Source: Candidatus Woesearchaeota archaeon (lineage in GTDB: Archaea > Nanobdellota > Nanobdellia > SCGC-AAA011-G17 > JACPIM01). Taken from it: a stretch of DNA of 64,000 nucleotides. The notes under the pieces were generated by a model. It ran no database searches and was not told the DNA's origin. It saw only the letters and a list, made by a program, of their open reading frames with translations. Shown piece by piece: positions 3,144-64,000 of the stretch. Each line of letters begins with the position of its first letter. Position 1 is the stretch's first letter. Where the stretch lies: contig CAZELK010000006.1 of assembly GCA_964513145.1 (NCBI GenBank), forward strand, positions 2,051 through 66,050, in the 5' to 3' direction. Both the position numbers and the translations under genes were made by a program.

Positions 3144-3245
3144 GCCCGGGTAGCTCAGACTTTTCCTATATTTAGGAATTGGAGCAACAGGTAGAGCGCA
3201 TGGCTGTTAACCATGAAGTCGGTGGTTCGAGTCCTCCCCTGGGCG
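3144..3245 (+). tRNA. tRNA-Asn (anticodon GTT) with a ~29-nt intron in the D-loop
   Basis: Acceptor stem GCCCGGG/CCTGGGC. D stem GCTC...GAGC is interrupted by ttttcctatatttaggaattggagcaaca. Anticodon arm CATGG-CTGTTAA-CCATG, anticodon GTT. T arm GGTGG-TTCGAGT-CCTCC. Mature length is ~73 nt. Confidence 0.7.
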
Positions 3246-14579: not shown

Positions 14580-15054
14580 TTTTTACTTTATTACTTAATC
14601 TATCCCATTTCATAGTATCTTTTTCAAAAAAAGATAATGCTTTTACTAAGTTCTTTTTATTTAAAGATTTTGATATGCAAATCCATCGACCATAATTATC
14701 TAATTTTATTTTTTTCATTGGTAATAGTTTAGATAATATCTCATGACATCCCCTGATTATTTTTTTACTTTTACACGAAACTTGTATATTTCTTGTTTTT
14801 CTAAGTACATGCCCTTCAAAAGTCATAAAGCCACATAAAAAGGCAATTCGAAATTTTAAATTTGAATTTTTAATCAATTTTGGTTCTGTTACAGTATACG
14901 TTTTCTCACCTAAAGGAAAGCCCAAAAATTTATTTAAGTATCTAACAACAATTTTATTATCTAAATCAATTCTAAAGGCTTTCTTTTTCTTACATTTCTT
15001 TAATTTCGATTTTATTCCAAATATATGAAAAATCCAACCTTGAAGTTTTAGCAT
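14566..15054 (-). CDS. LAGLIDADG-like (single-motif) homing-endonuclease-like protein
   Basis: 162 aa, very basic. Carries RIAFLCGFMTFEGHV, which resembles LAGFIDGDG. Confidence 0.4.
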   Translation of the reverse strand: MLKLQGWIFHIFGIKSKLKKCKKKKAFRIDLDNKIVVRYLNKFLGFPLGEKTYTVTEPKLIKNSNLKFRIAFLCGFMTFEGHVLRKTRNIQVSCKSKKIIRGCHEILSKLLPMKKIKLDNYGRWICISKSLNKKNLVKALSFFEKDTMKWDRLSNKVKNAKL

Positions 15055-15164
15055 TGAACTCTCATACGCTTCTGTAATATTTATAGCGTTGGATATTGTT
15101 AAAGTAATTTGTTTATTTTCTCTAAATTTATATAGTTCTTTAGGAATAATTGATATTGTATTTT

Positions 15165-15722
15165 TTAGTGTGTATTTTTTAGTCTAATTCTTAAAGCCTT
15201 TTTTGTTTTAAATATTTTAAATTCGTAATTATTATTTTTTAAAATTTTAATTAAATCTTCTTTAATTTTTGAATCTTTAATTTCTATTCCTATCCTATTA
15301 CATATATTGCCGTCTGCTGCATGCGCTCCACAAATTTTCGCTAGATCTATATTAATAGTTTTAACAGCTTTTATTGGTTTCGACTTATTACTATTACATT
15401 TAATATATTCAACATTTTCATTTATTAAATTAAAGTATTTGGGAGCTTTACATAAGGATATGACCATTTCAAATAAGGGAATTGGAATCCATTCGCGATC
15501 ATTATAAATTATTTCTTCAATTGGTCCTAAACTACATTTTAATCTATTCTTAATAATTCTAGATAACTCCTTCTTTGATAATTGCTTTTCTTCTATTATT
15601 TGGTTGAATAAACCCATAAAACTCTTTCTTAAATTCTTTCCCTTAAAACAAATCCAACTTTTTGGCGAGATATCTACTTTTTTATCATGAAGTTTAAATA
15701 AATCAAATTTATTTTTAGACAT
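15165..15722 (-). CDS. LAGLIDADG-like (single-motif) homing-endonuclease-like protein
   Basis: 185 aa with LAKICGAHAADGNI. Adjacent to and co-directional with 14566..15054. Confidence 0.4.
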   Translation of the reverse strand: MSKNKFDLFKLHDKKVDISPKSWICFKGKNLRKSFMGLFNQIIEEKQLSKKELSRIIKNRLKCSLGPIEEIIYNDREWIPIPLFEMVISLCKAPKYFNLINENVEYIKCNSNKSKPIKAVKTINIDLAKICGAHAADGNICNRIGIEIKDSKIKEDLIKILKNNNYEFKIFKTKKALRIRLKNTH

Positions 15723-15944
15723 TTAATAATGGTAGGTAAGTTATTATATAAACTGCAGGCTGGTCTTTGTCTTGTCTAGTAGTTTTGTCCTGTTGTTAAA
15801 ATGTTGTTATAAGCCTTATAAATCAATTTTAGTCCGAAAGATTTTTGGTTGTCTTGTATTAATTTTCGGAGAAGTCGGAAATTTTACGAAATTAATAGTT
15901 CTAGAACACAAATCTTTTTATATTAATCTTATCACGAATAATTT

Positions 15945-16235
15945 ATGGGTGGGGGTACAGGTGATTGCGAACTTGGAGATTCTGAGTTAAAGGAAGTTTA
16001 TAGTTTAGAATTTTTAACAACTATTGATGGGGAAGAATTTACAAGGAAGCAAATTGGCTTTTCAAAGGAGAAGTTTGTTGTTTTAAATGTACATGGCTCC
16101 AGATGTGAACATAAAGAGGTTCAAATAGGTCCTGATTTATATGCTTTATTTAAGGAACAAGCTTTAAAAGGAAGTTATAGGTCTGCAAAAGAGTTTTGTG
16201 CAGGCTTAGAAAAATCTCCTGAGAAAATTTATTAA
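15945..16235 (+). CDS. hypothetical protein (96 aa)
   Basis: ORF in the track. Convergent with gatD (stop overlap). Confidence 0.35.
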   Translation: MGGGTGDCELGDSELKEVYSLEFLTTIDGEEFTRKQIGFSKEKFVVLNVHGSRCEHKEVQIGPDLYALFKEQALKGSYRSAKEFCAGLEKSPEKIY

Positions 16236-17515
16236 TTTATTTCTGTTCTTTTTGATATTTCGCCATGTAAATTTTCATGAAATAATTCCTTAACTTTATT
16301 TTTAGGATAATTGCTTAAAAGCCAGGCTATTTTTATAAAAGCAGTTTCTGTTAATATATCCAGTAAATTTCCTATTACTCCTGCTTCCTGCAATAAACGA
16401 CCTGTAGAATAAACATTCATATTTATTCTACCGTAAATTGTTTGGGAGGTAGCTATTACAGGAATTTTTTTAGCTAATTTTTTTATTTCATTGTATATTT
16501 TTTTATTTTCTTTTGTGTATTTGTCAATTTCATTTATTGGAAAATTACCTGCAAGACCAAAACCTTCCAATATTAGCGCATCAAAATTTCTGTAATTAGA
16601 TATCTCTTTTGAAATCATATTTGGGTGTGATTTAAGAATGCCTATTTTCAATTTAGAATTAAATAGATTTAATTTTAAAGATTTATTTTCTTTTTTAACA
16701 TGCGGCTTTAAGAATGTAATATTGCCTTTTGAACTAATTCTTGCAATTGGCGAATCATTAACAACTTTAAAGGCATCTCTTGATGACGTGTGCATTTTTC
16801 TTGTTTTTAATGACGGCATTATCAAGCAGTTATCATCATTTGTTGATTCGTGCATGCAAATTGCAACGCCCTGAAAATCTGTTTTTGCTATAAAATTCGC
16901 TGCAGATATCAAATTTAATGCTGCATCAGTACTACCCCTGTCTGAGCTTCTTTGAGAACCTACCAAAATTACCGGGACATTTAAATTTTCCAGAATAAAT
17001 GTTAATGATGCTGATGTGAAGGCTAATGTGTCTGTGCCATGAGTTATTATTATGCCGTCAACCCCTTCTTTTATTTCCTTTTCAATTTCCTTTGCTATAA
17101 TATTATAGTGATTAAAATTCATGTCTTCTGAGAACATGCTGCTGATTAACCTTGATTTTATATTTGCTATTTTTTGAAGCTCGGGAAACATTGCAATGAT
17201 TTCTTCTGGGGTAAATTTTGATATTACACCCCCAGTTTCATAAGAAACCCTGCTTGAGATTGTTCCACCAGTATGAAGAATAGAAATTGTTTTTAGTTCT
17301 TTTTTAAATTGGATCTTTTGCTGTTCCTGATTTTTCTCTTCAAATTTCTTTATTAATTTTATAGATTTAATATTCTTTTTTAGAATTCCAATATTATACC
17401 CTGAAGACAACTTTATTACAATAATTTCCTTATTTTCTGATGGAACAAATGCCCCATTTAATACCCCTTTATTTGTGCTGATCTCTATTAAGTCGCCCAA
17501 ATTAAAATTCTGCAT
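16232..17515 (-). CDS. gatD: Glu-tRNA(Gln) amidotransferase subunit D (asparaginase-like)
   Basis: 427 aa. Asparaginase motifs HTGGTI and THGTDT, with the GatD N-terminal domain. Confidence 0.85.
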   Translation of the reverse strand: MQNFNLGDLIEISTNKGVLNGAFVPSENKEIIVIKLSSGYNIGILKKNIKSIKLIKKFEEKNQEQQKIQFKKELKTISILHTGGTISSRVSYETGGVISKFTPEEIIAMFPELQKIANIKSRLISSMFSEDMNFNHYNIIAKEIEKEIKEGVDGIIITHGTDTLAFTSASLTFILENLNVPVILVGSQRSSDRGSTDAALNLISAANFIAKTDFQGVAICMHESTNDDNCLIMPSLKTRKMHTSSRDAFKVVNDSPIARISSKGNITFLKPHVKKENKSLKLNLFNSKLKIGILKSHPNMISKEISNYRNFDALILEGFGLAGNFPINEIDKYTKENKKIYNEIKKLAKKIPVIATSQTIYGRINMNVYSTGRLLQEAGVIGNLLDILTETAFIKIAWLLSNYPKNKVKELFHENLHGEISKRTEIN

Positions 17516-19127: not shown

Positions 19128-20108
19128 GTGAAACTTTTGAATAAGGAAACAAAGATTTTTTTAATGGTTTTTTTAATTCTTGGCATAGGCTTTTTATCTA
19201 CTAATTTGGAAATAACTGGAAATACTCATTTAGTTAAGACAGAAAATAAATATTTTGAAGATTTGCCAACTGAATTAACAATAAATTCTTATCCTCCAAA
19301 GGCTGATATTTATATTTCTGGAAATTATATTGGACAAACGCCATTAACATTAACTGCCTTAGATCCGACATTATATGAAATTGAATTGAGGAAAATTGGA
19401 TATTATAATTTAAAAGAAAAAATAAATCTAGAAGCTAATATAGATAATGTAATAAGACTTGATTTAACAAAAATTGGGGAGGGAAGTTTATTTATCGACT
19501 CAAATATTAAAGAGGCTGATATTTACATAAATAATGAATTATCAGGAATCACACCAAAAAAAATATCTTTACTTGAAGGAGTTTATGATATAAAAATAAG
19601 AAAAAATAATTTCGCTGATTTTTTTACCTCGAAAGCAATAAAAGCTGGACAAAATGATAAATTATTTGCTAATTTAGACAATAAGAATTCTGGAAGCATG
19701 TATGTAGAAACTGAACCTAATGATGCAAAAATTTTAGTTGATGATGTTTATCAGGGTGTTACACCAAATTTACTAGGATTAAATACTGGTTCATATATTG
19801 TTAGAGTTGAAAAGGAAGGCTATGATTCAAAAACATTTAATGTTGAAATAAAAGAAAATGAGAGAAAAGACATTATAGCAAAATTAGATGCCAGTTTAGG
19901 CACTTTATTTGTCGGATCAGAGCCTTTTGGAGCCAAGATTTATATTGACGGAACTTATCAAGGAGTTACTCCAAAAATAGTTTCTGGTTTAGGTGATGGT
20001 TTTCATACTTTAAAAATAACCAAGGACTATTATGAGGAATATTTAGGTACAATAAAAGTAAAGAGACTGTATCCGAATAGTATTTATGTAAAATTAGTTA
20101 GAAAGTAA
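19128..20108 (+). CDS. PEGA-domain cell-surface protein (GTG start)
   Basis: Signal/TM peptide plus four PEGA-like repeats (..YIGQTPLTL...IELRKIGY.., ..VYQGVTPNLL...VRVEKEGY.., ..TYQGVTPKIV...LKITKDYY..). RBS aaggag lies 9 nt upstream. Confidence 0.7.
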   Translation: MKLLNKETKIFLMVFLILGIGFLSTNLEITGNTHLVKTENKYFEDLPTELTINSYPPKADIYISGNYIGQTPLTLTALDPTLYEIELRKIGYYNLKEKINLEANIDNVIRLDLTKIGEGSLFIDSNIKEADIYINNELSGITPKKISLLEGVYDIKIRKNNFADFFTSKAIKAGQNDKLFANLDNKNSGSMYVETEPNDAKILVDDVYQGVTPNLLGLNTGSYIVRVEKEGYDSKTFNVEIKENERKDIIAKLDASLGTLFVGSEPFGAKIYIDGTYQGVTPKIVSGLGDGFHTLKITKDYYEEYLGTIKVKRLYPNSIYVKLVRK

Positions 20109-49626: not shown

Positions 49627-49698
49627 GCCTCTGTAACTCAATGGCAGAGTGCCGCCTTCGTAAGGCGGAGGTTTTGGGTTCAAATCCCATCAGAGGCT
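49627..49698 (+). tRNA. tRNA-Thr (anticodon CGT)
   Basis: Acceptor GCCTCTG/CAGAGGC. D arm ACTC-AATGGC-GAGT. Anticodon arm CCGCC-TTCGTAA-GGCGG. T arm TTGGG-TTCAAAT-CCCAT. Discriminator T. Confidence 0.85.
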
Positions 49699-52076: not shown

Positions 52077-52547
52077 ATGGACTTAAAAGAAGAGTATGAA
52101 AAATTAAGAAAAAATTACAAACTTCCCAGTTATGAAGATTTAGACAGAGAATTTGAACTGCTTTATGTTGCCAAATTAGAAGAAATAAAATTCCCATTAA
52201 GATTTATCAGGAGAAGAATTACAGATAAACTTAGCTGGTTTTGCAATATGATGCAAAATATAATACAGCCCAATCCAGGTTCTTTAATAAGTCTAGAAGA
52301 AAGCAAGTTTTTTTCAGACAATGACAGAGCAAAAATAATAAATCTACTAAAAGAATTAATGTATTTTGAAAGAGAGTCGCTTATTTTAGAAGTTTATTTT
52401 AATGAAAAAGATGATGTTGAATTTATAAATAATATCTTTGACATCTGGGACAAAACAAAAAAAGAAATTAAATTTATAACAGATATACTTAAAAAAGGCT
52501 GGAAAAAAGAAATGAAAAAAGAGGAAAAAGAACATTATTTTGGCTAA
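52077..52547 (+). CDS. hypothetical cytoplasmic protein (156 aa), first gene of the pilus locus
   Basis: ORF in the track. Lies 2 nt upstream of the first pilin-like gene. Confidence 0.5.
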   Translation: MDLKEEYEKLRKNYKLPSYEDLDREFELLYVAKLEEIKFPLRFIRRRITDKLSWFCNMMQNIIQPNPGSLISLEESKFFSDNDRAKIINLLKELMYFERESLILEVYFNEKDDVEFINNIFDIWDKTKKEIKFITDILKKGWKKEMKKEEKEHYFG

Positions 52548-52549
52548 AG

Positions 52550-53221
52550 ATGAATAAAAGAGGTCAGGTTTATATCTTATTTGCATTAGTTATAGCCTTA
52601 GTTGTTTTTGTTTTAACTAATAAATCAAACATAATCAATATTACTCCTAGTGACAGCGAGTTTAAGGAGATATCAGAAAATTATGAAACTGAAAGCAGCA
52701 ATCTTGTAAGTTCTTTAATAAAATTTAATAAACTTGATGAAGAAATATCAGAACAGTTTGCAACATTCAGCATTTTATTTACACAATATTCAAAAAGCAA
52801 AAATCCTTCTTTTGGACTGGTTTATTTTCTTAATCACAATAATGTTTTAAGAGTAGGAAATTTTTTAGATAAAAATATAAAAGTAACTGGCGGCAGTTCT
52901 GATATTAATCTTGAGGGCTGTTATTCCCTTGTTCCTGTTTTTATAAATTATAATACTTTTCAAATAAACAATTATATTGATTATGAAACATACAGGCGCA
53001 ATTCTATTACTTCCCCATGTGTTAATGAAATAACACCAGCGCCTGATCAAATAATTTTGAAAATAGGTGATGAAGAAATTGAATATGAAGTTAATATTAT
53101 ACCACAACAACCCAGGGTTGTAGTCATAAGCAGGGAAAACTTGTTTCAAGACAGAAAGGTTTTTTTAGATGATCAATTTGTAAAAGGAAAAAGACATAGG
53201 GATAATAGAGATGATGATTAA
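52550..53221 (+). CDS. class III signal peptide (archaeal type IV pilin-like) protein
   Basis: MNKRGQVYILFALVIALVVFVL: a K/R-G-Q cleavage motif followed by a hydrophobic helix. Confidence 0.55.
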   Translation: MNKRGQVYILFALVIALVVFVLTNKSNIINITPSDSEFKEISENYETESSNLVSSLIKFNKLDEEISEQFATFSILFTQYSKSKNPSFGLVYFLNHNNVLRVGNFLDKNIKVTGGSSDINLEGCYSLVPVFINYNTFQINNYIDYETYRRNSITSPCVNEITPAPDQIILKIGDEEIEYEVNIIPQQPRVVVISRENLFQDRKVFLDDQFVKGKRHRDNRDDD

Positions 53222-53657
53222 AAAAAAGGGACAGTCTGAATTTGTAGCATATGTTTTGCTGATAGGCATGGCTGTTGCACTAGCATCAATAATCGGAGTA
53301 TGGAGTTTTAATAATGCACAAAAAGTTAGTGATAATATAATAAAACAAAACAAAATAGAAGAAAAATGCGACCAATTAGCTATTAGCAGCAAAATTATTT
53401 GCCTTAATAATGCTGTAGATTCTATTAGTATTTCTAACACCGGCTATTTTACAATTGATGAAGTTAAAATAACTAATCCAGAAACTGGGCTGGAAAATTG
53501 CTTTAATAAAGTCACAAAAATAAAACCAGGAGAGTCCAGGATTACACAAACTTTAAATAATTGCGATACTGCCATATTATTGCCTTTAGTCAAGATTTCA
53601 GATGATGAGACAATAGGGTGCAGTGAAAAAAAATTGGTGTTGAAATTAATATGTTAA
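53211..53657 (+). CDS. class III signal peptide (archaeal type IV pilin-like) protein
   Basis: MMIKKKGQSEFVAYVLLIGMAVALASIIG: KKGQ|S, a classic prepilin peptidase site. Confidence 0.65.
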   Translation: MMIKKKGQSEFVAYVLLIGMAVALASIIGVWSFNNAQKVSDNIIKQNKIEEKCDQLAISSKIICLNNAVDSISISNTGYFTIDEVKITNPETGLENCFNKVTKIKPGESRITQTLNNCDTAILLPLVKISDDETIGCSEKKLVLKLIC

Positions 53658-54103
53658 AATTTAGAAAGAGGGGTATTTCGCCTTTAATTGCAACTGTGTT
53701 GCTGATCGGGTTTACTGTTGCTATTGCAGCAATAGTAATTTTCTGGAGCAGAAATTTTGTAAAAGAAAAGGCAGAAAAAGAAGGTGCTTTATCAGAAAAA
53801 AAATTAAAATGTGAAAATGTAGAAATTGACATTAAAAGCATTGATAAATTAAATAAAAATATTGTTATTGAAAATAAAGGCAATGAGGACATTGATGGAT
53901 TTATATTAAGAGTTGTTTCTGGTGGTGTTGGATCAGATAAAATTACATTAAAATTAGAAGCTTTAAAAACAGCAACAATTACATATTCTTTTGATTTGGA
54001 AACAAATTCAAAAATTGATTTGATACCAGCATTAAAACCAGAAGGAACAAATGCACCTTTGGTTCCTTGCTCAAATAAACATAAAGTTATAAAAACTGAA
54101 TAA
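53651..54103 (+). CDS. archaeal type IV pilin (Pilin_N / class III signal peptide)
   Basis: MLKFRKRGISPLIATVLLIGFTVAIAAIVIFW. Confidence 0.7.
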   Translation: MLKFRKRGISPLIATVLLIGFTVAIAAIVIFWSRNFVKEKAEKEGALSEKKLKCENVEIDIKSIDKLNKNIVIENKGNEDIDGFILRVVSGGVGSDKITLKLEALKTATITYSFDLETNSKIDLIPALKPEGTNAPLVPCSNKHKVIKTE

Positions 54104-54120
54104 ATTTTAAGGAGGTAAAA

Positions 54121-54579
54121 ATGAGATTTTTAAATAAAAAAGGTATTTCACCTTTAATTGCAACTGTATTATTAATAGGATTTACTGTTGCCTTGGCTGC
54201 AGTAGTCATTACATGGGGCAGCGGATTTGTAAACAGGGTTACAACTGGCACTGACCAAAGAACTTCAAAGGCTATCTCATGCACAGGTGATCTGGATTTT
54301 GAAATTACAAAAGTAACATGTCCAGACACAATACTTGTCAATAACAAAGGCAATTTAGCTATTGAAAGCTTAAATTTAAGATTTTTTGATGAAAATGGAA
54401 ATCTAGCTGGAGTTCCTGCAACAACAGCGCCAATAGAAAAATATGAATTGAAATCAATTACACAAGCTATACCAGTTGGAACAACAAAAGTAGAGGCAAT
54501 TGCAACAGTTATAATTGACGGACAAGAAGCAGTATGCAGTGAAGCAGCAAAACAAAGAACATTTAGCCCAGCCTGCTAA
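54121..54579 (+). CDS. archaeal type IV pilin (class III signal peptide), paralog
   Basis: MRFLNKKGISPLIATVLLIGFTVALAAVVITWGSGFV. Conserved Cys at ~55 and at the C-terminus (..FSPAC). Strong SD aaggaggt 5 nt upstream. Confidence 0.75.
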   Translation: MRFLNKKGISPLIATVLLIGFTVALAAVVITWGSGFVNRVTTGTDQRTSKAISCTGDLDFEITKVTCPDTILVNNKGNLAIESLNLRFFDENGNLAGVPATTAPIEKYELKSITQAIPVGTTKVEAIATVIIDGQEAVCSEAAKQRTFSPAC

Positions 54580-54649
54580 ATTTTTTTCTTTTTTTATTAT
54601 TTATGAGTTAATATACTTCTTTATATAATTGAATTAATTTTATTTTTTT

Positions 54650-55111
54650 ATGGGGTTTTTAAATAAAAAAGGTATTTCACCTTTAATTGCAACTGTATTA
54701 TTAATAGGATTTACTGTTGCCTTGGCTGCAGTAGTCATTACATGGGGCAGCGGGTTTGTACAAAGAATTACAACTGGGACTGAAGACAGAACAACAAGAA
54801 CTGTAACTTGCACTAGTGATGTAAACTTTGAAATTACAAAAGTTGACTGTAATACAAAAGCAGTTACAATAACAAATACTGGTGATTTTCCTATCCTTGG
54901 ATTTACATTTAGATTTTTTAATAGTGGAGGCGATTATTTGGGAATGACAAATGGTGATGGAGCAAATAAATTTGAGGTTAAAATTATTAATCTTCAAAAT
55001 ATCCCTTCTACAACCAGCAAAGTAGAAGCTTTATCAACAATAATACTTGAAGGTCAGAATGTTACATGCAAAGATATAATCAAAGAAAAAATATTTAGTC
55101 CAGCTTGTTAA
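54650..55111 (+). CDS. archaeal type IV pilin (class III signal peptide), paralog
   Basis: N-terminal ~105 nt are identical to 54121..54579 bar one mismatch. C-terminal ..FSPAC. Confidence 0.75.
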   Translation: MGFLNKKGISPLIATVLLIGFTVALAAVVITWGSGFVQRITTGTEDRTTRTVTCTSDVNFEITKVDCNTKAVTITNTGDFPILGFTFRFFNSGGDYLGMTNGDGANKFEVKIINLQNIPSTTSKVEALSTIILEGQNVTCKDIIKEKIFSPAC

Positions 55112-55143
55112 TTCTGGTAGCTTAATGAATTAAAGGATTCTCG

Positions 55144-55716
55144 TCAAATCAACTTTTTAACTTTAACTCTTATTTTTTCCGGATATCTTTTCAAATAAGT
55201 TTCTAATCTTTTAAAATTTATTTTCTTTTTTATTTCTCTTAATAATTGTTTATCAATTGACTGATTAAAAACCACCATGTCAATAAATGTTTTTTCAATA
55301 TCTGAGTACGGAAAGTAAAAACTACCCTCTTTTAAAAGCTCAAAACCAAAAAAATACTTTTTATTAATATTTCTTATCAAAACATTTGTCCCCAAAAATT
55401 CTCTAATTCCCCTTCTAACTTTTTTTGTAGTTAAAATTACAGGTATTGTTTCCTGCTCCCATAAACCATAAAAACTTAAGGCGGTTTGCAATCCTAAATA
55501 AGCTGGTTTAAATGCAAAAACAGGAAGAGAACTTTCGTCATATTTTGTATAAAATCCCTTACCAACTTTTTTTACTTTATTTTTCTTTAAAAGATTTGAA
55601 ATTAATAATTTTGCATAGTTATTCTTTCCAATTATTCTCTCAATAGATTTAAAGTCTACTACTGGACTTCTTTCAAATAATCTCTCTATTTTTTTTAAAT
55701 GTATTTGTTTTCCCAT
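55144..55716 (-). CDS. AbiEi-like (type IV TA antitoxin-like) wHTH protein
   Basis: 190 aa. N-terminal ..LLKKNKVKKVGKGFYTKYD.. resembles the AbiEi_4 domain (L..G.l.rv.rGvY). Overlaps the upstream gene by 22 nt. Confidence 0.45.
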   Translation of the reverse strand: MGKQIHLKKIERLFERSPVVDFKSIERIIGKNNYAKLLISNLLKKNKVKKVGKGFYTKYDESSLPVFAFKPAYLGLQTALSFYGLWEQETIPVILTTKKVRRGIREFLGTNVLIRNINKKYFFGFELLKEGSFYFPYSDIEKTFIDMVVFNQSIDKQLLREIKKKINFKRLETYLKRYPEKIRVKVKKLI

Positions 55717-56174
55717 TTCTTTTTTATATAATCAAACATTTCGTCAGAAGAAGGAATAATTCCTTCAGTAATTATGGCTTTTAAATTACTTTCATCAATT
55801 GGTTTTTTATAATATTTAATTAGTTTTTCAATATCTTTATTGTGAATTTTAGAATTTTTCAACAAGAAGAAAATATCCCATAAATCCCTGACTTTAAATC
55901 TTTTTAGATAAGTATTAATTTTTTCAATTAAAAAATCTTCAATTGTCAGACTATAAATCGAGATTAAAGTCCCATCAGACATTTCATAATCACAAATTAC
56001 GCCTGAAATCTTTTGAAAGGTCGCTTCCAATCTAACAGAAGTTCTATCAAATTCCAGTTCAGAATAAATGCTATTTTCTGATATCTTTTTCTTCTTAATT
56101 TGAAATCCTATCTTTTTTAAATTTTCAAATAATAACTCAATTTTTGAATTATCGTTTGGAAAATAAAAATCCAA
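55695..56174 (-). CDS. AbiEii-like nucleotidyltransferase-fold protein (short)
   Basis: 159 aa. C-terminal VRDLWDIFFLL matches the AbiEii (DUF1814) RDlYDl..L motif. The N-terminal NTase motifs are degenerate or truncated. Confidence 0.4.
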   Translation of the reverse strand: MDFYFPNDNSKIELLFENLKKIGFQIKKKKISENSIYSELEFDRTSVRLEATFQKISGVICDYEMSDGTLISIYSLTIEDFLIEKINTYLKRFKVRDLWDIFFLLKNSKIHNKDIEKLIKYYKKPIDESNLKAIITEGIIPSSDEMFDYIKKKWENKYI

Positions 56175-56425
56175 ATCTTCAGAAAATCTTTTTCCCTGAT
56201 AACATCTCCATATCCCTGTTCCCCCATAAAACTGCTTTTTTTAAATAGAATAAACTTCCTGAACAATTAAATCCTGGGCATAAGCTATTTTTTTGTGAGT
56301 TTCCCTGTTCAATCTTATCTGCAAAGGTAATTTTTCCATATTATTAACAAAAGTTATATATCTATATATCTTTCTGTTAATATAATAAATAACTAAAAAA
56401 CTTTCTATTTTATATTATTTATTGT

Positions 56426-56546
56426 ATATTTACTCATTATTAATGAATTATAGATACGATTAATATGGTAAACCTTCCTACTATTCACTATCCTAATGAA
56501 ACTCCCACATAAATAGTGAATAATACCTCATATTTTCTATTGAGAA
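56426..56546 (+). repeat. direct repeat copy A (~121 bp core, diverged extension to ~56610)
   Basis: atatttactcattattaatgaattata...ttcactatc...aataatac[ct]tcatattttctatt[t]gagaa. About 85% identical to 59265..59386. Confidence 0.7.
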
Positions 56547-56640
56547 GTTTGCAAAATAGTTAATTTAGATTTGTCACTTATACAAAAAGCTTTCTAATAT
56601 TAATAGTAAACTTTATAAGTAAGCTTTCTATTTATATTAT

Positions 56641-57927
56641 ATGGATTTTAAAAGTATAATTAAAGAACAAAGAGAAGAACTCGAAAAAATAGAAAGAGAA
56701 GAAAAAATAATAGAAAGAACTAATTTAGAAGAGTCTAAAATAGCATTAAAATACCCAAATATACTTGCTATTTTAGGTATTAGAAGGTGCGGTAAGTCAA
56801 TTTTTTCATATTTATTGGCAAAACCACATAAATTTGCATACATTAATTTTGATGACGAAAGGCTAGCTGGATTGAAAAGTGGGGACTTGAACAAGATTTT
56901 AGAATCTTTTTATGAAATTTATGGAGATATAGAATTTATAATTTTAGATGAAATACAAAATATAGATAACTGGGAACTATTTGTCAATAGATTAAGAAGA
57001 ACAAAAAAAATAATCTTAACAGGAAGCAATTCTAAACTTTTATCAGGGGAATTATCAACTCATTTAACTGGAAGATACTTAAATAAATTATTGTTTCCAT
57101 TTTCTTTTAAAGAACTATTAAAATTGAAAGATTTTAAAGAAAATAATGTTTATACAACACAAGAAAAAGCAAAAATTATGGGACTTTTGCAAGAATATCT
57201 TGAACTGGGTGGATTCCCGGAAGCATATAAATTTGGAAGAGGAATAATTTTAAGAATTTATGAAGATATATTAACAAAGGATATTTTATTAAGACACAAT
57301 ATAACCAAGAGAGAAGAAATAAAAAAATTAGCTAAATACTTAATAACAAATTCTTCTGGAGAAATAACTTATAGCAAATTAGCAAAAATATTTAATATTA
57401 AACATGTTTCAACAATATCTAACTGGATTTCGTTTCTCGAAAATGCTTTTTTGATTTTTAGATTGGAAAGATTTGACTTTAAGTTAAAACAGCAATTTAT
57501 AGCTCCAAAGAAAGTATATTGTATTGATTCCGGACTTGTTAATTCAATAGGGTTTCAATTCTCAGAAAATAAGGGAGAAATTATTGAAAATGAAGCTGCA
57601 TTAGAATTACAGAGAAGAAAAGCTATAGATAAATCTCTTGAAGTTTATTATTGGAAAAACCATCAGCAGAATGAAGTAGATTTTGTTCTAAAAAGAGACA
57701 AAAAAATAGAAAGTTTAATTCAAGTCAGCTATATAAACTCAAAAGAAGAAATAAAAGAAAGAGAAATTAATTCTTTAATAAAAGCAAGCAAAGAGCTAAA
57801 ATGTAAAAATCTTGTTGTTATAACCTGGGATTATGAATCAGAAGAAAAGTTTTATGGAGAAGAGATTAAATTTGTTCCATTATGGAATTGGCTGCTTGGA
57901 TATAAAGAACATATTAAAATAAACTAA
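56641..57927 (+). CDS. AAA+ ATPase, AAA_14/DUF4143 family
   Basis: 428 aa. Walker A GIRRCGKS, Walker B IILDEIQ, DUF4143-like C-terminal half. Confidence 0.8.
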   Translation: MDFKSIIKEQREELEKIEREEKIIERTNLEESKIALKYPNILAILGIRRCGKSIFSYLLAKPHKFAYINFDDERLAGLKSGDLNKILESFYEIYGDIEFIILDEIQNIDNWELFVNRLRRTKKIILTGSNSKLLSGELSTHLTGRYLNKLLFPFSFKELLKLKDFKENNVYTTQEKAKIMGLLQEYLELGGFPEAYKFGRGIILRIYEDILTKDILLRHNITKREEIKKLAKYLITNSSGEITYSKLAKIFNIKHVSTISNWISFLENAFLIFRLERFDFKLKQQFIAPKKVYCIDSGLVNSIGFQFSENKGEIIENEAALELQRRKAIDKSLEVYYWKNHQQNEVDFVLKRDKKIESLIQVSYINSKEEIKEREINSLIKASKELKCKNLVVITWDYESEEKFYGEEIKFVPLWNWLLGYKEHIKIN

Positions 57928-57998
57928 GTCATCATTTATTGTTATCACTATTGATTTAAGACAATAATTTATATAGAGAAATTTATATAAAATTATAG

Positions 57999-58505
57999 AT
58001 GAGATTTTTAAATAAGAGGGGTATTTCTCCTTTAATTGCAACTGTATTATTAATTGGGTTTACTGTTGCCTTGGCTGCAGTAGTTATTACTTGGGGCAGC
58101 GGGTTTGTTAACAAGGTTACTTCAACTACAGAAGAAAGCACATTAAAAACAATTTCCTGCACTACTGATGTAAGTTTTGAAATTACAAAAGTAACATGTG
58201 ATACTGAACCTGGAAATCCAGATCCAAGCACAATAACTGTAGATAATCGCGGTAGTTTAGATATTGAAGGTCTAATTTTAAGATTTTATGATATTAATGG
58301 AGAGGTTTCTGGAGAAGCAACCAATACTGAACCCATTGGTAAATTCGAAGTTAAAACTATTTTGTTATATCCTGACACAATTCCGCAAGAAAAAATACCA
58401 ACTGAGACAACTAAAGTAGAGGCAATTGCAGTAGTCAAATATAATGATCAAAATTTAACTTGTGGTGGGAATGCAAGACAGAAATCATTTACTCCTTCCT
58501 GTTAA
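57999..58505 (+). CDS. archaeal type IV pilin (class III signal peptide), paralog
   Basis: MRFLNKRGISPLIATVLLIGFTVALAAVVITWGSGFV. C-terminal ..FTPSC. Confidence 0.75.
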   Translation: MRFLNKRGISPLIATVLLIGFTVALAAVVITWGSGFVNKVTSTTEESTLKTISCTTDVSFEITKVTCDTEPGNPDPSTITVDNRGSLDIEGLILRFYDINGEVSGEATNTEPIGKFEVKTILLYPDTIPQEKIPTETTKVEAIAVVKYNDQNLTCGGNARQKSFTPSC

Positions 58506-58512
58506 TTCTTAC

Positions 58513-59094
58513 ATGAAAAAAGGCCAGATATGGACATCAGCAGTTTTGTATATAGTTATAGGAGTAATTACAATATCAATTATTTTAAGTGCTGGGGTAC
58601 CTTTAGTAAATAAATTAAAAGATAAAAATACAATAATCCAAACAAAAGAATTAATGCTGGACTTGGATAAAGTAATTAGGGAAGTTAGAAATGAGGGGCC
58701 TGGTTCGAAAAGGGTTATACAGCCTTTTGTTATAAAGGATGGAAATTTTTTTATTAATACAACAAATAATGAAAATAAAATACAATGGATATTGAAAACT
58801 AGTGCTGTATTTGTTGAACCTTGTGGAAAAACAAAAGCAGACTGCTTAAGCAATAATTTAATTATTAAAGAGGGGCCTTTAAGTATTTATGACACTGATA
58901 CTATTGTTGAAGATGAATATATTATTAATTTGGAATTAGACTATGCTGGCGTTGGTTTTTTGAAAATGAAAGAGGGTCTTGGCAAAGATGCGCCTTTGCT
59001 AGGGAGATTTTCTTTTATAATTGAAAATTCTGGTGCTGATATTACAAGAAGTCCACCAACGAACCTGCCTGATTTGGATATTACAGTAAATTGA
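58513..59094 (+). CDS. class III signal peptide (pilin-like) protein
   Basis: MKKGQIWTSAVLYIVIGVITISIIL. The track ORF (58462) extends upstream into the preceding gene. Confidence 0.6.
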   Translation: MKKGQIWTSAVLYIVIGVITISIILSAGVPLVNKLKDKNTIIQTKELMLDLDKVIREVRNEGPGSKRVIQPFVIKDGNFFINTTNNENKIQWILKTSAVFVEPCGKTKADCLSNNLIIKEGPLSIYDTDTIVEDEYIINLELDYAGVGFLKMKEGLGKDAPLLGRFSFIIENSGADITRSPPTNLPDLDITVN

Positions 59095-59264
59095 ACGGTT
59101 TCTTCAAAAAAAAAGTAAGAACTTGATTTTTATATCCTAACTAAGCTTTTCATTTATTTTCTTGAGATTGAAAAGTATTATTTTTTGCAGATTTGAAAGT
59201 AATTTTTTATCTTCTCTTGCTCTTGCCCCTTTAGTATAATTCAGGTATTCGTCCAGCAATCTGC

Positions 59265-59386
59265 ATATTTACTCATTATTAATGAATTATATATGGGATT
59301 AATATGGCAGACCCCCCTATTATTCACTATCATAATAATATTTCACCATAAATAATGAATAATACTTCATATTTTCTATTTGAGAA
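59265..59386 (+). repeat. direct repeat copy B
   Basis: See copy A. A further diverged similarity exists at ~59420-59445 versus ~56585-56610. Confidence 0.7.
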
Positions 59387-59567
59387 ACACCTTAAATCTG
59401 TAGTCTGACTAAAATAAGAAAACCATAAATTTTCTCTTACTATTAATGGTGAGGAAGGCAGGGGTTTTGCTGGACTGGGTTTTTCATGGTAATGTTACTA
59501 TTTATTTGTTAATGCACTTCTTTATATAGAATAAGTTGATAATTTATTTATAAAAGAGCTGTGTTAA

Positions 59568-60815
59568 ATGAAATTAGAAAATACATTAACTATTTTTTGT
59601 ATTTCCCTTTTGGGTTTTTTATTGTTATTAGTTAATTTTTATACTGTTAAATATAATGAAGACATTACTGGACAAATTGTATTAAGTGATTTTGCCTTGT
59701 TTGGTGCTGCTGCTTCTGGTGATAAAAATGCATGCAATGCCATTGCAAGCACTTATGCAGGAAATTTGGATGTTTTACCAAAATCAGTTTTAGATGCATG
59801 CAGATTTCCAAAGACTCCTTCTTTTTCTACACAAGTTGATAATTTAAACTTGGAACAATTAGATACAAATCTGAAAAATGTAGACAATTCTATTGCACAA
59901 TTAGATTTATTAGGATCTGCCATGAGCAACAGTATACCTAGTCTAAAAGAAGAAAAAACTACTTTAGAAGGTGAATTTATTTCTCTTAAAACTGAGATCC
60001 CTAAGTTAGCAACTACTATTTCTGAATTTGATACAAAACTTAGAAAAGTTAATTCAGATTTAAGCAAAGCAAAAAGTAAACCCTGCAAAATATTTCAAAC
60101 CAGCTGCAAGACTTTAAAGAACCAAGAAGTTTCTAAATTTAAATCTGAAGCTGATTTATTAAATAAAGACAAATCTTCTGCAGTAAGGAATAGCAAAGGA
60201 AAAACAGTTTTATTAAATAATAAAAGAGCTAAATTAAGTGATTTATCTTCCCAAATACAATTAGCTGAACAAGTTAAAGCTAATATTGGAAATAAGAAAA
60301 ATGAATTAAATAAGTTAAAGAATGACATTACTAATAAAATAAGTGAATTGGAAAAAGAAATTTTAGATGAAACAATTCGTGTTGAAGATGAGGATGATAT
60401 ATCAAATGCAGAAGTATCCAAAACTAGTAAAGTCTGCCATTGCACTCTGCGAGAGATAACAGAGGTAGAATGCAAGAAGAAAGGAATTCCTATTCAAACT
60501 GGTCCTGAAACTATTACTCCTTGGGAAGAAGGTGTTGCAAGTGGCGGTACTTGGAAAGTTTATCTTGATCGGGGTTTTGGTATGTCTGCAACAAAGTGCA
60601 CGCGTGATTTGATTTATCCAGATGGTGCCTGTAATTCTGATGCGGACTGCATAGAGGGCTGTGCCTTTAAAATGCAGGATCAAGGGTCGACGGCGAGACT
60701 TGATTGCTTGGATACAGTGGAAAGAATTTGTGCAAAGAGAGGAGGGACAACGAATAAACTTTACTGGCCTGTTCGAAAGGAAGGTATTTGTTTGGATGTA
60801 GTTAGCGCTCCTTGA
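59568..60815 (+). CDS. membrane-anchored coiled-coil protein with Cys-rich C-terminal domain (candidate surface/adhesin protein)
   Basis: 415 aa. N-terminal signal anchor. ~250 aa Lys/Asn/Leu-rich coiled coil. C-terminal ~130 aa with 14 Cys (CHC...ECKKKG...CTRD...CNSDADCIEGC...). The C-terminus is encoded by GC-rich DNA. Confidence 0.6.
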   Translation: MKLENTLTIFCISLLGFLLLLVNFYTVKYNEDITGQIVLSDFALFGAAASGDKNACNAIASTYAGNLDVLPKSVLDACRFPKTPSFSTQVDNLNLEQLDTNLKNVDNSIAQLDLLGSAMSNSIPSLKEEKTTLEGEFISLKTEIPKLATTISEFDTKLRKVNSDLSKAKSKPCKIFQTSCKTLKNQEVSKFKSEADLLNKDKSSAVRNSKGKTVLLNNKRAKLSDLSSQIQLAEQVKANIGNKKNELNKLKNDITNKISELEKEILDETIRVEDEDDISNAEVSKTSKVCHCTLREITEVECKKKGIPIQTGPETITPWEEGVASGGTWKVYLDRGFGMSATKCTRDLIYPDGACNSDADCIEGCAFKMQDQGSTARLDCLDTVERICAKRGGTTNKLYWPVRKEGICLDVVSAP

Positions 60816-61059
60816 AACATAGGTTTAGCACCCAAACTTAATCTTTAACTGCTTTAGGTGCTAATAAATATCAATAAGAATTGCACTACCAATACCGAAG
60901 ATTTTATTTTTCATTTAATTATTACTAAATAAATAACATCCTTATTAATTAAGGGTGAAGTCAGATTATCTTGTAGAACTCTCGGGGACTTTCTATAACA
61001 ACTTTTTTAATCCTGTTTCAAACATAGCTTTTAAATATTAGAAATGCAAATAATTATTT

Positions 61060-64000
61060 ATGTTAGGTCAAAATAAAGAGGTTATAGAGTTCAAGCCGAT
61101 TTTTTACATAAATCCAAGACCAGAGATAGCTGAATTACCTGATGTAAAAGAAAAGCAAAAAATAGATGTGAGATATGTTTTATTAGAACCTTATGTAAAT
61201 GCACATATTTTCTGGGACAAAGAAAACAATGAACTTGTATATTATGTTGAAGAACCACAATTAGATGAAAAAGAATTAAATGTCCTGAATATTTTAGAAA
61301 ATGGGATAAATGAATTAATAAACATCAGCTTTATTGCAATGAAAAATACTGATGTTGTAGTTGAATATTTAGAAAAAAACATAAGGGTTTTATTAAATGA
61401 ATTGAAAATAAGCATTTCCAAAGAATCTTATTTAAAATTAATGTATTATATTTACAGAGATTTTGTTGGACTAAATGAAATTGAGCCTTTGCTAAAGGAT
61501 TATTATATTGAAGATATTGAATGCAATGGTGTTAATACTCCAATTTACATTGTCCATAGAAAATACAGGAATTTAAGAACAAATATTATTTTTAAAGATG
61601 CAAAAGAATTAACTAGTTTTGTAGAAAAATTAGCACAAAAATGCGGGAAATATATATCTTATGCTTCCCCTTTATTAGACGCAAGTTTGCCAGATGGGTC
61701 GCGTATTCAAGCAACATTCACGCAAGATATTTCTTCAAGAGGACCAAGTTTTTGCTTTGCTGACGGATATTTACAATTAAATAATGGCGAGGTTGTGAAA
61801 ATAAATAAATTATTTGAAAAATGTAAAAATGACTTTGGTTCAAGTTTTGATAAAGAAAATGAAATTGTTAATGTAACTAATGTTGGTGTTTGCGGAGTTG
61901 ATGAAAATAATTTAAAACAAATTGATTCTAAACTAAAAACTATAATAAAATTGAAACCACCTGAAGAATTAGTAAATATTGGATTTGATGATGGTTCAGA
62001 AATAATCACAACTACAAACCACTTATTTCATGTGGTGGATAATGATTTAAGCCTTTTAGAAGCACATAAATTAAAAACCGGGTTGTTTGTACCTATGCCT
62101 TCTAAAGTAGATGTAGAGGGTTGCATGCAATCTATCAACATAGTCAATTTAATAAAGGAATTTTCTTATTTATATAAAGTCTGTCTAGTTTCAAACCAAG
62201 AAATTAAAAACATAGTTTCCAACAATATTGATTTTTATAAAAATAAAAGCAGAGATTATAGAATACAAATGGCTCAGGACTATACAGTACATAATTCTTA
62301 TTTCTATGAGATTCTTTCAAGAGGAAGCTCAATTTCTTTTGAAGTTCTTAATGAAATATGTGATCTTAATTCTCTGGATGAAATCAATTTAGTTGTTTAT
62401 GGCGGTCCTGTTAAAAAAGAAAGAAAATCTATAAATGTACCAAAAATTTTAGATGAGGAATTAGCTTATCTGGCTGGTGCTATAATTAGTGATGGTCATC
62501 TCAGTAAATATAGTATTGATATTGCTTGTTATAATACTGGATTTACAAATGCGGTTACTACCAGACTAAAAAATAAATTTGGGAAATTTAATGTCTATTA
62601 TAATGGTACCAGAGTTTATTTGTGCAATCTATTTGTGCCTTTTTTCTTCAATAAAATATTTGGCATACCTTATGGAAGGAAAGCAAAAATTGTAAATATT
62701 CCGGAGATAATATTTAAATCAGATAATAAAATAATTGCCGCTTTTTTAAAAGGTTTATTTGACGGTGATGGGACATGCAAATCTGGAATAAGCTATAAAA
62801 CAAGCTCCAAAGAACTTGCAGAACAATTAACTTATTTATTAGCCAGATTAGGGTTATATTCCAAAATTATACTTAAAAAGAATATGTATAGAGTTCTTAT
62901 ACCGTCAATTTATGAAAATATTTATTCTGAAAAAATTAATTTTTGTGATACTTTTAAAATTAAATGTTTGAGCGAGTTACTTTTGAAGAAAGGAAATAAT
63001 GCCAAATCTTATATTAGACATGGCAGAGTCCCTGCAAAACCCATCCTGAACTTAATGAAAGATGTGGGTTTATCTAAAAATAAAGCAAGTAAATTATGTA
63101 AAGTGAGCTATAACAGATTAGTACATTATGACTCCTTGTCAAAACCTTTTGTTAAACAAATAATTAGTTTAATAGAATTGGAAATAGAAAACAAGGGGAT
63201 AAAAAACTGCAAATTAGACTACATAAAATGGTTAGTTGGATGTGAACAAGAATTTGTTAAAATTAAACATGTAAAAATCTTTGAAAATAAAAATAAAATA
63301 CCAGTTTATGATATAGAATTAGAACCTTGTAAATTCTTTATAGCTGGAAACAAACCAATGAATATTTTTGATACAGTTAGAAAATTTACAAAAGACCCAT
63401 GGACCCCAGTTAAATTAATGCAATTTAAAACAGTTTCACCAGAAATTTTGGCTTATCTCTGGCTGTTAATAGAAAATGAAGCAAATATAATGATAATCGG
63501 CGGAACTGGTTCTGGAAAAACTTCTTTTCTGAACTCGATTGCTTTTTTTATTCCGCCAGCAGCAAGGGTTGTTTCAATTGAGGATAGTGTCACTGGAGAC
63601 TCCGAGATTATATATAAAAATAAAGATAAAATTGAAAAATTAACAATAGGTAAATTAACAAAATTAGTAAATAGTAAAAAAATTAATTTAGAAAACATTG
63701 AAATTTTGACAGTAGATGATGACTGGAAAGTCAGATTTGGAAAACCCAGCAAATTTATAAAACATTCAACAAATAAAGATATATTCAAAATTACAACTTC
63801 GACTGGCAGAATAATAGAGGTAACAAAAGATCATTCTTTGTTTACACTAACCACTTCCGGATTAGTTGAAGTAAAACCAGAGAATTTAGAAGAAAATGTA
63901 TCCTGTATTGCTGTTCCCAGAGTTCTGCCTATAGAAGGAAAAGGTTTTTTTGATATTAATTTAATTAATCATTTAAATTATTTTAATGAAGATTTTTTAA
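61060..64000 (+). CDS. FlaI/GspE-family type IV pilus/archaellum assembly ATPase, interrupted by two inteins; 3' end outside the window
   Basis: Extein ...SRIQATFTQDISSRGPSF | TVRKFTKDPWTPVKLMQ...IMIIGGTGSGKTSFLNSIAFFIPPAARVVSIED | ... aligns to FlaI (..SRRGTSFTIRKF.., Walker A, ..ISIEDT..). The ORF stays open to the window end. Confidence 0.8.
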   Translation, partial: MLGQNKEVIEFKPIFYINPRPEIAELPDVKEKQKIDVRYVLLEPYVNAHIFWDKENNELVYYVEEPQLDEKELNVLNILENGINELINISFIAMKNTDVVVEYLEKNIRVLLNELKISISKESYLKLMYYIYRDFVGLNEIEPLLKDYYIEDIECNGVNTPIYIVHRKYRNLRTNIIFKDAKELTSFVEKLAQKCGKYISYASPLLDASLPDGSRIQATFTQDISSRGPSFCFADGYLQLNNGEVVKINKLFEKCKNDFGSSFDKENEIVNVTNVGVCGVDENNLKQIDSKLKTIIKLKPPEELVNIGFDDGSEIITTTNHLFHVVDNDLSLLEAHKLKTGLFVPMPSKVDVEGCMQSINIVNLIKEFSYLYKVCLVSNQEIKNIVSNNIDFYKNKSRDYRIQMAQDYTVHNSYFYEILSRGSSISFEVLNEICDLNSLDEINLVVYGGPVKKERKSINVPKILDEELAYLAGAIISDGHLSKYSIDIACYNTGFTNAVTTRLKNKFGKFNVYYNGTRVYLCNLFVPFFFNKIFGIPYGRKAKIVNIPEIIFKSDNKIIAAFLKGLFDGDGTCKSGISYKTSSKELAEQLTYLLARLGLYSKIILKKNMYRVLIPSIYENIYSEKINFCDTFKIKCLSELLLKKGNNAKSYIRHGRVPAKPILNLMKDVGLSKNKASKLCKVSYNRLVHYDSLSKPFVKQIISLIELEIENKGIKNCKLDYIKWLVGCEQEFVKIKHVKIFENKNKIPVYDIELEPCKFFIAGNKPMNIFDTVRKFTKDPWTPVKLMQFKTVSPEILAYLWLLIENEANIMIIGGTGSGKTSFLNSIAFFIPPAARVVSIEDSVTGDSEIIYKNKDKIEKLTIGKLTKLVNSKKINLENIEILTVDDDWKVRFGKPSKFIKHSTNKDIFKITTSTGRIIEVTKDHSLFTLTTSGLVEVKPENLEENVSCIAVPRVLPIEGKGFFDINLINHLNYFNEDFL
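61753..63372 (+). mobile_element. Intein 1 (540 aa) with LAGLIDADG homing-endonuclease domain
   Basis: Starts CFADGY (block A). Block B TTTNHLFHV. Two LAGLIDADG motifs (LAYLAGAIISDGH, IAAFLKGLFDGDG). C-terminal block VYDIELEPCKFFIAGNKPMNIFD followed by +1 Thr; the last residue appears to be Asp rather than Asn. Confidence 0.75.
63586..64000 (+). mobile_element. Intein 2 (partial), inserted at the conserved IED|T site
   Basis: Begins SVTGDSEII (Ser1 block A). Block B TKDHSLF. Continues past the window end. Confidence 0.55.

Follow-up and report, generated by a model that had tools for sequence, protein, structure and literature searches.

A probable type IV pilus operon with a triple-intein assembly ATPase gene in Candidatus Woesearchaeota

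What kind of surface machine is encoded by a row of pilin-like genes in Candidatus Woesearchaeota? The genes lie in a 64-kb stretch of archaeal DNA with ~29% GC (contig CAZELK010000006.1 of assembly GCA_964513145.1), here called the window, which ends inside a gene for a pilus ATPase. An initial annotation of the window had described a type IV pilus-like locus. This was supported by matches to the model TIGR02537, a pilin fold, an ATPase of the T2SSE/VirB11 family and a platform encoded downstream. The locus is very probably an archaeal type IV pilus (type IV filament) operon, and the window region is the upstream two-thirds of an operon conserved in Woesearchaeota and Nanoarchaeota. The pilus system is ordinary and of a known kind. 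Its sole unusual feature is a motor gene with three inteins, which had been overlooked in the annotation.

Two sets of sequences were compared with the window. The Logan contig L001 shares the final 7,488 nt of the window, apart from a single mismatch at window position 58893, and continues beyond its end. Nine related loci, L002 to L010, were taken from GTDB representative genomes, the best relative being 80% identical. The genomes closest to the window were metagenome-assembled genomes (MAGs) labelled 'Candidatus Woesearchaeota' and 'Nanoarchaeota', several of them from groundwater, which places the source among DPANN archaea of the Woesearchaeota/Nanoarchaeia group.

Seven genes on the + strand between 52550 and 59094, named B to H, encode proteins with a class III-type N-terminus. 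A short basic leader ends in [KR]G, the next residue is Gln or Ile, and a hydrophobic H-domain of 17 to ~25 residues comes after it, as initially annotated. A strict regular expression for this motif was run in six frames of the window, covering 210 stop-to-stop segments (≥60 aa) with 695 candidate starts. It matched inside the pilus locus only and recovered six of the seven genes; the 17-residue H-domain of the seventh was just below the cutoff. Since the matches were confined to the locus, the motif cluster is not a chance effect. Archaeal class III signals have been defined by G, A or S at position −1, a charged residue at −2 and a cleavage site before a ~20-residue H-domain near the N-terminus (PMC4371748). 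These features were found in all seven window genes and in orthologs of B, C, D and H, as well as in M and N, two further genes described below. The genes had been called consecutive or nearly so. A run of seven is present, but it is split between F and G by an insertion.

Two types of cleavage site occur side by side (cleavage marked by ↓). Genes D to G carry K[KR]G↓ISP, which resembles the RA↓VS site of Haloferax volcanii PilA. Genes B, C and H carry KGQ[V/S/I], with Gln at +1, identical to the sites of the EppA-processed Epd pilins EpdB to EpdE of Methanococcus maripaludis. Gene E (54121 to 54579, + strand, 152 aa, NKKG↓ISPLIATVLLIGFTVALAAVVITW) is the major-pilin candidate, and its family comprises 450 members in DPANN MAGs. 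Its paralogs F (54650 to 55111, + strand, 153 aa) and G (57999 to 58505, + strand, 168 aa) both begin with K[KR]G↓ISPLIATVLLIGFTVALAAVVITW and are 56% and 64% identical to E, respectively. Gene D (53651 to 54103, + strand, 150 aa, FRKRG↓ISPLIATVLLIGFTVAIAAIVIFW) encodes a further pilin of the Pilin_N type. Genes D to G share the N-terminal segment GISPLIATVLLIGFTVA(L/I)AA(V/I)VI(T/F)W. Over the first 206 nt, E and F are 83% identical, and the paralogs reach just 82–83% nucleotide identity over the most conserved 206 nt, which ruled out a recent duplication or an assembly artefact.

The other three proteins are more divergent. Gene C (53211 to 53657, + strand, 148 aa, KKKG↓QSEFVAYVLLIGMAVALA, KKKG↓QSEFVAYVLLIG...) contains six Cys and aligns with the major pilins as a distant paralog that keeps the equivalents of the invariant C54 and C139. 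Gene B (52550 to 53221, + strand, 223 aa, MNKRG↓QVYILFALVIALVVFVL) has two Cys, and QVYIL follows its cleavage site, which is of the Epd/EppA type (KGQ, +1 Gln). Orthologs of 203–385 aa beginning with MNKKG↓QIYIL were present in L005, L007, L008 and L009, making gene B a candidate minor pilin of variable length. Gene H (58513 to 59094, + strand, 193 aa, MKKG↓QIWTSAVLYIVIGVITISI, MKKG↓QIWTSAVLYIVIG...) has a KGQI site and two Cys. Comparison with homologs placed its true start at 58513 and not at the upstream GTG at 58462. Orthologs of H were found in L002, L004, L005 and L007 to L009, and the family holds only 28 clusters, all annotated as hypothetical Woesearchaeota proteins. The cluster begins with gene A (52077 to 52547, + strand), which lies 2 nt upstream of B and encodes a cytoplasmic protein of 156 aa with no transmembrane (TM) segment and no Pfam or NCBIfam match. 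L009 has an ortholog (49% identity) at the corresponding position; in L007 and L008 no such gene precedes B. The link of gene A to the pilus is only positional.

Profile and structure comparisons identified the core proteins as type IV pilins. TIGR02537, the model for the N-terminal domain of archaellins and type IV pilins, has a cutoff of 20 bits and was passed by E (39.5 bits), G (39.5), D (32.4) and C (21.0). The N-terminus of F is identical to that of its passing paralogs, so that five genes fit the model. Among 81 members of the gene E family, which underlie the conservation figures and the AlphaFold2 model, K or R at −2 was found in 80, Gly at −1 in 79 and Pro at +3 in all. Some more distant family members carry a precomputed match to the Pfam family Pilin_N (PF07790). 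The model of E, built from these 81 homologs, had a predicted local distance difference test (pLDDT) value of 89.8 and comprises a helix at residues 11–57 followed by a β-sandwich. Its sole full-length Foldseek matches in the PDB were the type IV pilus subunits 8FK7 of Pyrobaculum calidifontis and 8FJ5 of H. volcanii. The family profile also found 8FK7 among PDB sequences (E-value 1.2e-7), as well as 8REY and 9MYG. The model of H (pLDDT 83.6) has a helix at residues 2–61 and then a β domain. Both models thus show the lollipop fold of pilins, a long N-terminal α-helix with a β-rich globular domain.

The cysteines of the major pilins differ from the first description, in which four proteins shared the Pilin_N N-terminus and a Cys pair formed by an internal SCT[GST]D and the C-terminal residue. 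The common N-terminus was confirmed for D to G; the SCT[GST]D motif and the C-terminal Cys occur in only three of the four. Gene D has KCEN in place of the motif, ends in KTE and not in Cys, and retains only the pair equivalent to C54 and C139; its orthologs in L007 to L009 likewise have two Cys. Each of E, F and G contains four conserved Cys, not two, at 54, 67, 139/140/155 and the C-terminal residue. Of these positions, C139 is unchanged in all 81 members of the family, and C54, C67 and C152 each show ≥90% conservation. In the five members with only two Cys, C67 and C152 were lost jointly. This co-loss favours the pairs C54–C139 and C67–C152, which are probably the disulfides of the major pilins as judged from sequence, and the internal-to-C-terminal disulfide proposed before was probably mis-paired. 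All seven pilin-like proteins have an even number of Cys and contain 0–2 N-glycosylation sequons each.

The assembly ATPase gene starts at 61060 on the + strand and is cut by the window end at 64000. The ORF is much longer than a secretion ATPase requires. Its full length, obtained through L001, encodes 2011 aa and includes three LAGLIDADG inteins (L001 5241 to 10118), whose removal would leave a spliced protein of 524 aa. The N-extein spans 61060 to 61752 and the middle extein, with Walker A, 63373 to 63585, both on the + strand. Against the PDB, the 524-aa extein matched GspE of Archaeoglobus fulgidus (afGspE, 2OAP) at E=2.9e-123 and 415 bits over residues 22–521, gapless at the three junctions, and it is also colinear with the intein-free ortholog in L003. 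Walker A, the Asp box, Walker B and the His box are all kept in alignment with afGspE, and the T2SSE domain scored 106.5 bits. Other PDB matches were FlaI 4II7 (3e-80, 273 bits) and CpaF (4e-50, 174 bits). The term FlaI-like, used in the initial annotation, therefore applies at superfamily level but not at a closer one, as the FlaI equivalog model NF058587 gave 396.7 bits with a cutoff of 550 and the extein was closer to afGspE, which has been assigned to Clade 2/arCOG01817 (Makarova et al.).

Intein 1 (61753 to 63372, + strand, 540 aa) interrupts the site RGPSF↓TVRKF, where the arrow marks the insertion point. It starts with Cys1, has a TxxH block B, ends in ...NIFD and is followed by Thr at +1. 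It matched Intein_splicing (PF14890) with 76.3 bits and LAGLIDADG_3 (PF14528) with 57.2 bits. Its site was filled in the window lineage only, among the orthologs compared. Intein 2 (499 aa, + strand) begins at 63586, so that its N-terminal part up to 64000 lies in the window, and ends at window-equivalent position 65082. It sits at the Asp box (SIED↓TREL) and has canonical ends (S...HN↓T), with Ser1, C-terminal ...LLHN and Thr at +1; the same site is filled in L002. Intein 3 (448 aa) lies beyond the window on L001, at the His box FQGMS↓SGHPS, again with canonical ends (S...HN↓S). Compared with the intein-free gene of L003, the orthologs revealed five insertion sites: LPDG↓S, RGPSF↓T, Walker A GK↓T, Asp box IED↓T and His box GMS↓S. 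Between none and three of them were filled per genome, and inteins were also present in the ATPase genes of L002, L004 and L005. A census with the extein as query returned 120 best matches that were all intein-free (509–632 aa), the 2011-aa protein of the window itself being unlisted; the ranking is biased against intein-bearing alleles and is thus no measure of their frequency. The frame of 2011 codons is open at 29% GC, where 0.082 stops per codon (~1 per 12) are expected under the base composition (log10 P = −75), which indicates that the whole precursor is under selection.

A second gene near the pilus cluster may contain inteins. The RtcB-like tRNA ligase encoded downstream of the operon measures 487–491 aa in L002 and L006 to L008, and 808 aa in L003 (14476 to 16902) and 971 aa in L004 (15874 to 18789). 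RtcB is a known intein host, and the enlarged forms in L003 and L004 probably represent further inteins.

The locus had been thought to end with the ATPase. It is the window that ends there, and on L001 the ATPase gene is followed by two platform genes and one or more pilin-like genes of the locus. No T2SSF gene was found inside the 64-kb window, and the earlier expectation of a platform just downstream proved right. T2SSF_N (L001 10586 to 11857) follows directly after the ATPase gene, and T2SSF_C (L001 11858 to 12712) follows T2SSF_N; both lie outside the window. Each product has one T2SSF domain, with 55.4 and 67.0 bits, respectively. They correspond to positions 6–243 and 264–544 of the 555 positions of the ArlJ profile, that is, to the N- and C-terminal halves of ArlJ/FlaJ, and reached at most 90 bits with the ArlJ models, whose cutoffs are 400–570. 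The platform was split in all eight related loci holding both platform genes. The split is a fixed feature of the lineage and not a frameshift.

After the platform genes, L001 encodes the class III-like protein M (...G↓AIHVDWAISMGLFL), and related loci contain gene N (NKKG↓FIRTIEAVIAI). Pfam and NCBIfam matches of M and N were at noise level. The gene order in the nine related loci is [A]-B-C-D-major pilin(s)-H-ATPase-T2SSF_N-T2SSF_C-M-N, followed by housekeeping genes for archease, a CobW-like GTPase and RtcB. The full system would thus have up to ten class III-type proteins, seven of them encoded in the window and the others downstream or known from related loci. In L006 to L009, a conserved helical open reading frame (ORF) of 60–75 aa lies between the ATPase and T2SSF_N genes (e.g. 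L007 6876 to 7103). Its Pfam matches were at noise level, and the window lineage has no separate gene of this kind.

Two insertions interrupt the order in the window lineage. The one between F and G was absent from the nine related loci and has two parts. The first, on the − strand (55144 to 56339), consists of a 190-aa ORF (55144 to 55716) with no family match, sitting where the AbiEi antitoxin is expected, and an AbiEii-like toxin gene that matched PF08843 with 24.7 bits as a C-terminal fragment. The toxin gene has an in-frame TAA at 56241 to 56243 in its N-terminal part, just upstream of the nucleotidyltransferase motif. The second part, on the + strand (56641 to 57927), encodes a 428-aa ATPase with AAA_14 (111.7 bits) and DUF4143 (87.7 bits) domains, which is not a pilus component. 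A search for flanking terminal repeats returned just short, low-identity AT-rich repeats, none of them convincing. The second insertion is gene I (59568 to 60815, + strand, 415 aa), a variable accessory gene between H and the ATPase. Its product starts with a signal anchor, contains a coiled coil and has a C-terminus rich in Cys; it may be a surface protein or adhesin. Pfam and NCBIfam returned only coiled-coil noise, and the only relative, 29% identical, was found in L004 on the opposite strand. Gene I is absent from the other related loci that have both H and the ATPase, and there the two genes are adjacent. In six of the nine related loci, H is the gene immediately before the ATPase; L004 has two inserted genes between them.

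Several results weigh against the reading as a functional type IV pilus operon. No Peptidase_A24, PibD, FlaK or EppA gene was found in the window, on L001, or within 10 kb of the platform gene in L002 to L009 (eight full-length matches). The initial annotation had correctly noted that the window holds neither a peptidase nor a platform gene; its proposed downstream search for PibD/FlaK yielded none on L001. As the searched regions contained no peptidase, class III processing is a step that we infer. Genes B and H matched neither TIGR02537 nor any Pfam or other NCBIfam model, and the fold search of H against the PDB gave no significant match (best E-value 0.18). The pilins scored 17.4–22.0 bits with Pilin_N (D 18.9, F 19.2, G 22.0), below the gathering threshold (GA) of 25.2, and only the N-terminal 30–70 profile positions were matched. 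Finally, Intein 1 ends in Phe-Asp and not in the canonical His-Asn. If it were unable to splice, the ATPase and the pilus would be non-functional in this organism.

For enzymes of the PibD type, a peptidase gene away from the locus is usual. All multi-TM proteins of the window were considered as peptidases and rejected, being Lgt, a DUF1385 protein, a fragment of the major facilitator superfamily and others. The single one left unexplained, a 315-aa protein with ~9 TM segments (3303 to 4250, − strand), was also rejected, having no Pfam or NCBIfam match and no GxGD motif.

The competing explanations were weighed on the same evidence. The state of the ATPase gene bears on whether the locus is decaying, with a mobile insertion splitting the pilin array and three inteins disabling the motor. 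The AbiE/AAA_14 insertion with its pseudogenised AbiEii, the extra gene between H and the ATPase and the Phe-Asp end of Intein 1 would fit such decay. However, the insertion is intergenic and disrupts no gene, all pilus ORFs are intact, and the ATPase frame has stayed open over 2011 codons despite the expected stop frequency. Intein 1 has retained its splicing blocks (A, B and F) as well as the two LAGLIDADG motifs, and splicing is known from inteins whose last residue is Asp, Gln or Glu (PMC4031507). Intein 1 is thus predicted to be splicing-competent, and a non-functional locus is highly improbable. Functional loci of other types have to be considered as well. In an archaellum locus, the Pilin_N-type proteins would be archaellins and the ATPase FlaI/ArlI. 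TIGR02537 spans archaellins as well as pilins, the best NCBIfam match of the ATPase by name is the FlaI model and some databases label its relatives 'flagellar protein FlaI'. Its 396.7 bits are nevertheless below the cutoff of 550, afGspE outscored FlaI in the PDB search, and the platform halves reached 90 bits against an ArlJ cutoff of 550. All archaella have seven components (Makarova 2016), and no FlaH, FlaF, FlaG, FlaCDE, FlaX or Arch_flagellin (PF01917) was found in the window, L001 or L002 to L010. The archaellum is largely refuted and can be regarded as excluded.

An assembly other than an adhesive pilus, such as a short pseudopilus, a bindosome-like structure or a machine for DNA exchange or uptake (Ups, Com), drew on partial matches to the BasE, UpsA and UpsF models and on the DNA uptake often discussed for DPANN genomes. 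The matches fell far short of the cutoffs, with 227 vs 1000 for BasE, 71 vs 400 for UpsF and 35 vs 130 for UpsA, the last covering the N-terminal helix only. The loci contain no substrate-binding proteins with class III signals and no DNA-processing genes, and the match of the major pilin to subunits that form filaments extends over the whole protein, which makes this alternative very unlikely. An Epd-type ('System 1'/Clade 1) pilus as in M. maripaludis, an archaeal relative of bacterial Tad pili processed by EppA, would account for the two-gene platform and for the sites of B, C and H, which equal those of EpdB to EpdE. A split platform is a hallmark of System 1, which has been reported in DPANN (2026 type IV filament (TFF) preprint). 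On the other side, many Clade 2 loci also have two tadC-like genes, and Clade 2 ATPases occur in some Nanoarchaea (Makarova 2016). The ATPase matched afGspE with 415 bits and CpaF with only 174, and the TadA model TIGR03819 gave 151.5 bits (cutoff 373). The pilins that are best conserved and present in several copies are PilA-like proteins of 150–170 aa with a globular domain and Ile at +1, not Flp-like proteins of ~70 aa, and the locus has no EppA or other 9-TM peptidase. An Epd-type pilus is therefore unlikely. A last proposal takes the mixture at face value as a distinct, unclassified Woesearchaeal filament subtype, combining a Clade 2-type ATPase and doubly stapled PilA-like pilins with System 1 hallmarks and the lineage-restricted H, M and N. 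It would be specialised for host contact, and its intein load would act as a post-translational gate on assembly and not as purely selfish DNA. This is conceivable, though rather unlikely.

The type IV pilus operon remains the preferred reading, and its class appears mixed, with Clade 2/'System 2' suggested by the ATPase and the PilA-like pilins and 'System 1'/Epd by the split platform and the KGQ sites. The 2026 TFF preprint gives System 2 a single-gene platform, which differs from the split one seen here; Makarova 2016 disagrees on this criterion. Provisionally, and with the extein placed by pairwise scores, the locus is classed among the Clade 2-like type IV pili of archaea, its platform being split.

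In the pilus proposed here, prepilins would enter the membrane via Sec, with E, F, G and perhaps D as major pilins and B, C, H, M and N as minor-type ones. A class III signal peptidase encoded in trans would remove the leader of 4–8 residues after [KR]G. The hexameric ATPase would become active only once the three inteins have been spliced from the 2011-aa precursor. It would then drive a heterodimeric platform of two half-size, one-domain T2SSF proteins, analogous to the single two-domain FlaJ/PilC or to TadB plus TadC. The platform would extract pilins from the membrane and polymerise them, with the N-terminal helices forming the filament core and the Ig-like β-sandwich facing outward, probably stapled by the two disulfides C54–C139 and C67–C152. 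Most likely, the filament would mediate adhesion to surfaces or host cells, in line with the episymbiosis inferred for DPANN. Signal peptide processing, filament formation and the role in adhesion or host contact are thus predicted from the gene content.

A life attached to host cells is assumed for DPANN archaea, and their pili, so far described only in broad surveys, are strong candidates for establishing the contact. The locus provides a conserved parts list for Woesearchaeota, with up to ten pilin-like genes, a two-gene platform and a Clade 2-like ATPase. Together with the high-confidence model of the major pilin and its two probable disulfides, this list could guide proteomics, antibody and cryo-electron tomography work on enrichment cultures. 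With three inteins and five sites among its orthologs, the motor gene is a convenient natural model of how inteins invade a non-replicative ATPase. The current understanding of archaeal pili is not overturned by the locus.

The remainder of the window holds FtsZ, an ORF of the size of an ATP-dependent ligase and other housekeeping genes. By size, order and N-terminal sequences, ORFs at 6350 to 9328 and 13155 to 17515 resemble the GatCAB and archaeal GatD/GatE amidotransferases. At 5255 to 5995, the archaeal genome has a gene for a prolipoprotein diacylglyceryl transferase of bacterial type (Lgt, PF01790, 205 bits), and 3–4 kb from it lies a cupredoxin gene (4252 to 4656) whose product has a lipobox-like N-terminus (..LISGC). 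A 314-aa protein with four PEGA domains (19164 to 20108, 183.6 bits) is unlinked to the pilus locus and is possibly surface- or S-layer-associated. Rfam and tRNA scans found nothing within the pilus locus, and the sole clear tRNA of the window was tRNA-Thr at 49627 to 49698. A borderline partial tRNA-like Rfam match at 3188 to 3241 (30.2 bits, GA 29) had no ARAGORN call.

Among known systems, the locus is similar to the PilA1–6/PilB3–PilC3 adhesion pili of H. volcanii (Clade 2, 8FJ5). These also have several paralogous major pilins with a near-identical conserved H-domain ([KRD][GA]↓[VI]S...), the same fold of helix and β-sandwich, an ATPase of the arCOG01817/afGspE type, to which that of the window is closest by score, and no peptidase in the locus. 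In contrast to the unlinked pilA genes of H. volcanii, the Woesearchaeal pilins, ATPase and platform are encoded in one operon. The platform is split, the pilins, with their four conserved Cys and low number of N-glycosylation sequons, score below the Pilin_N threshold, and additional pilin-like genes of the KGQ type and the lineage-specific H, M and N are present. The Epd pilus of M. maripaludis likewise has two platform genes (EpdJ/K), many minor pilins per operon and KGQ[VIL] sites. It differs in that the Woesearchaeal ATPase is not CpaF/TadA-like, the major pilins are globular with Ile at +1, and EppA, DUF2341 adhesins and FleN/MinD are missing from the locus. Bacterial TadB and TadC are also two separate one-domain T2SSF proteins, whereas the platform genes described here are halves of FlaJ/ArlJ and are accompanied by an archaeal ATPase and archaeal pilins, with neither a secretin nor a Flp-type pilin. 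Among solved structures, the spliced ATPase is closest to A. fulgidus GspE (AF0659, 2OAP/2OAQ), which is without inteins. Inteins are known from related enzymes, as 21 have been catalogued in archaeal COG0630/VirB11 ATPases (Novikova et al. 2016, Table 3). KlbA-type/VirB11 ATPase inteins also contain LAGLIDADG domains and also lie at conserved nucleotide-binding motifs of an archaeal secretion ATPase. Compared with these catalogued inteins, the Woesearchaeal motor gene stands apart by three inteins in one gene, five alternative sites among its orthologs and one intein ending in Phe-Asp.

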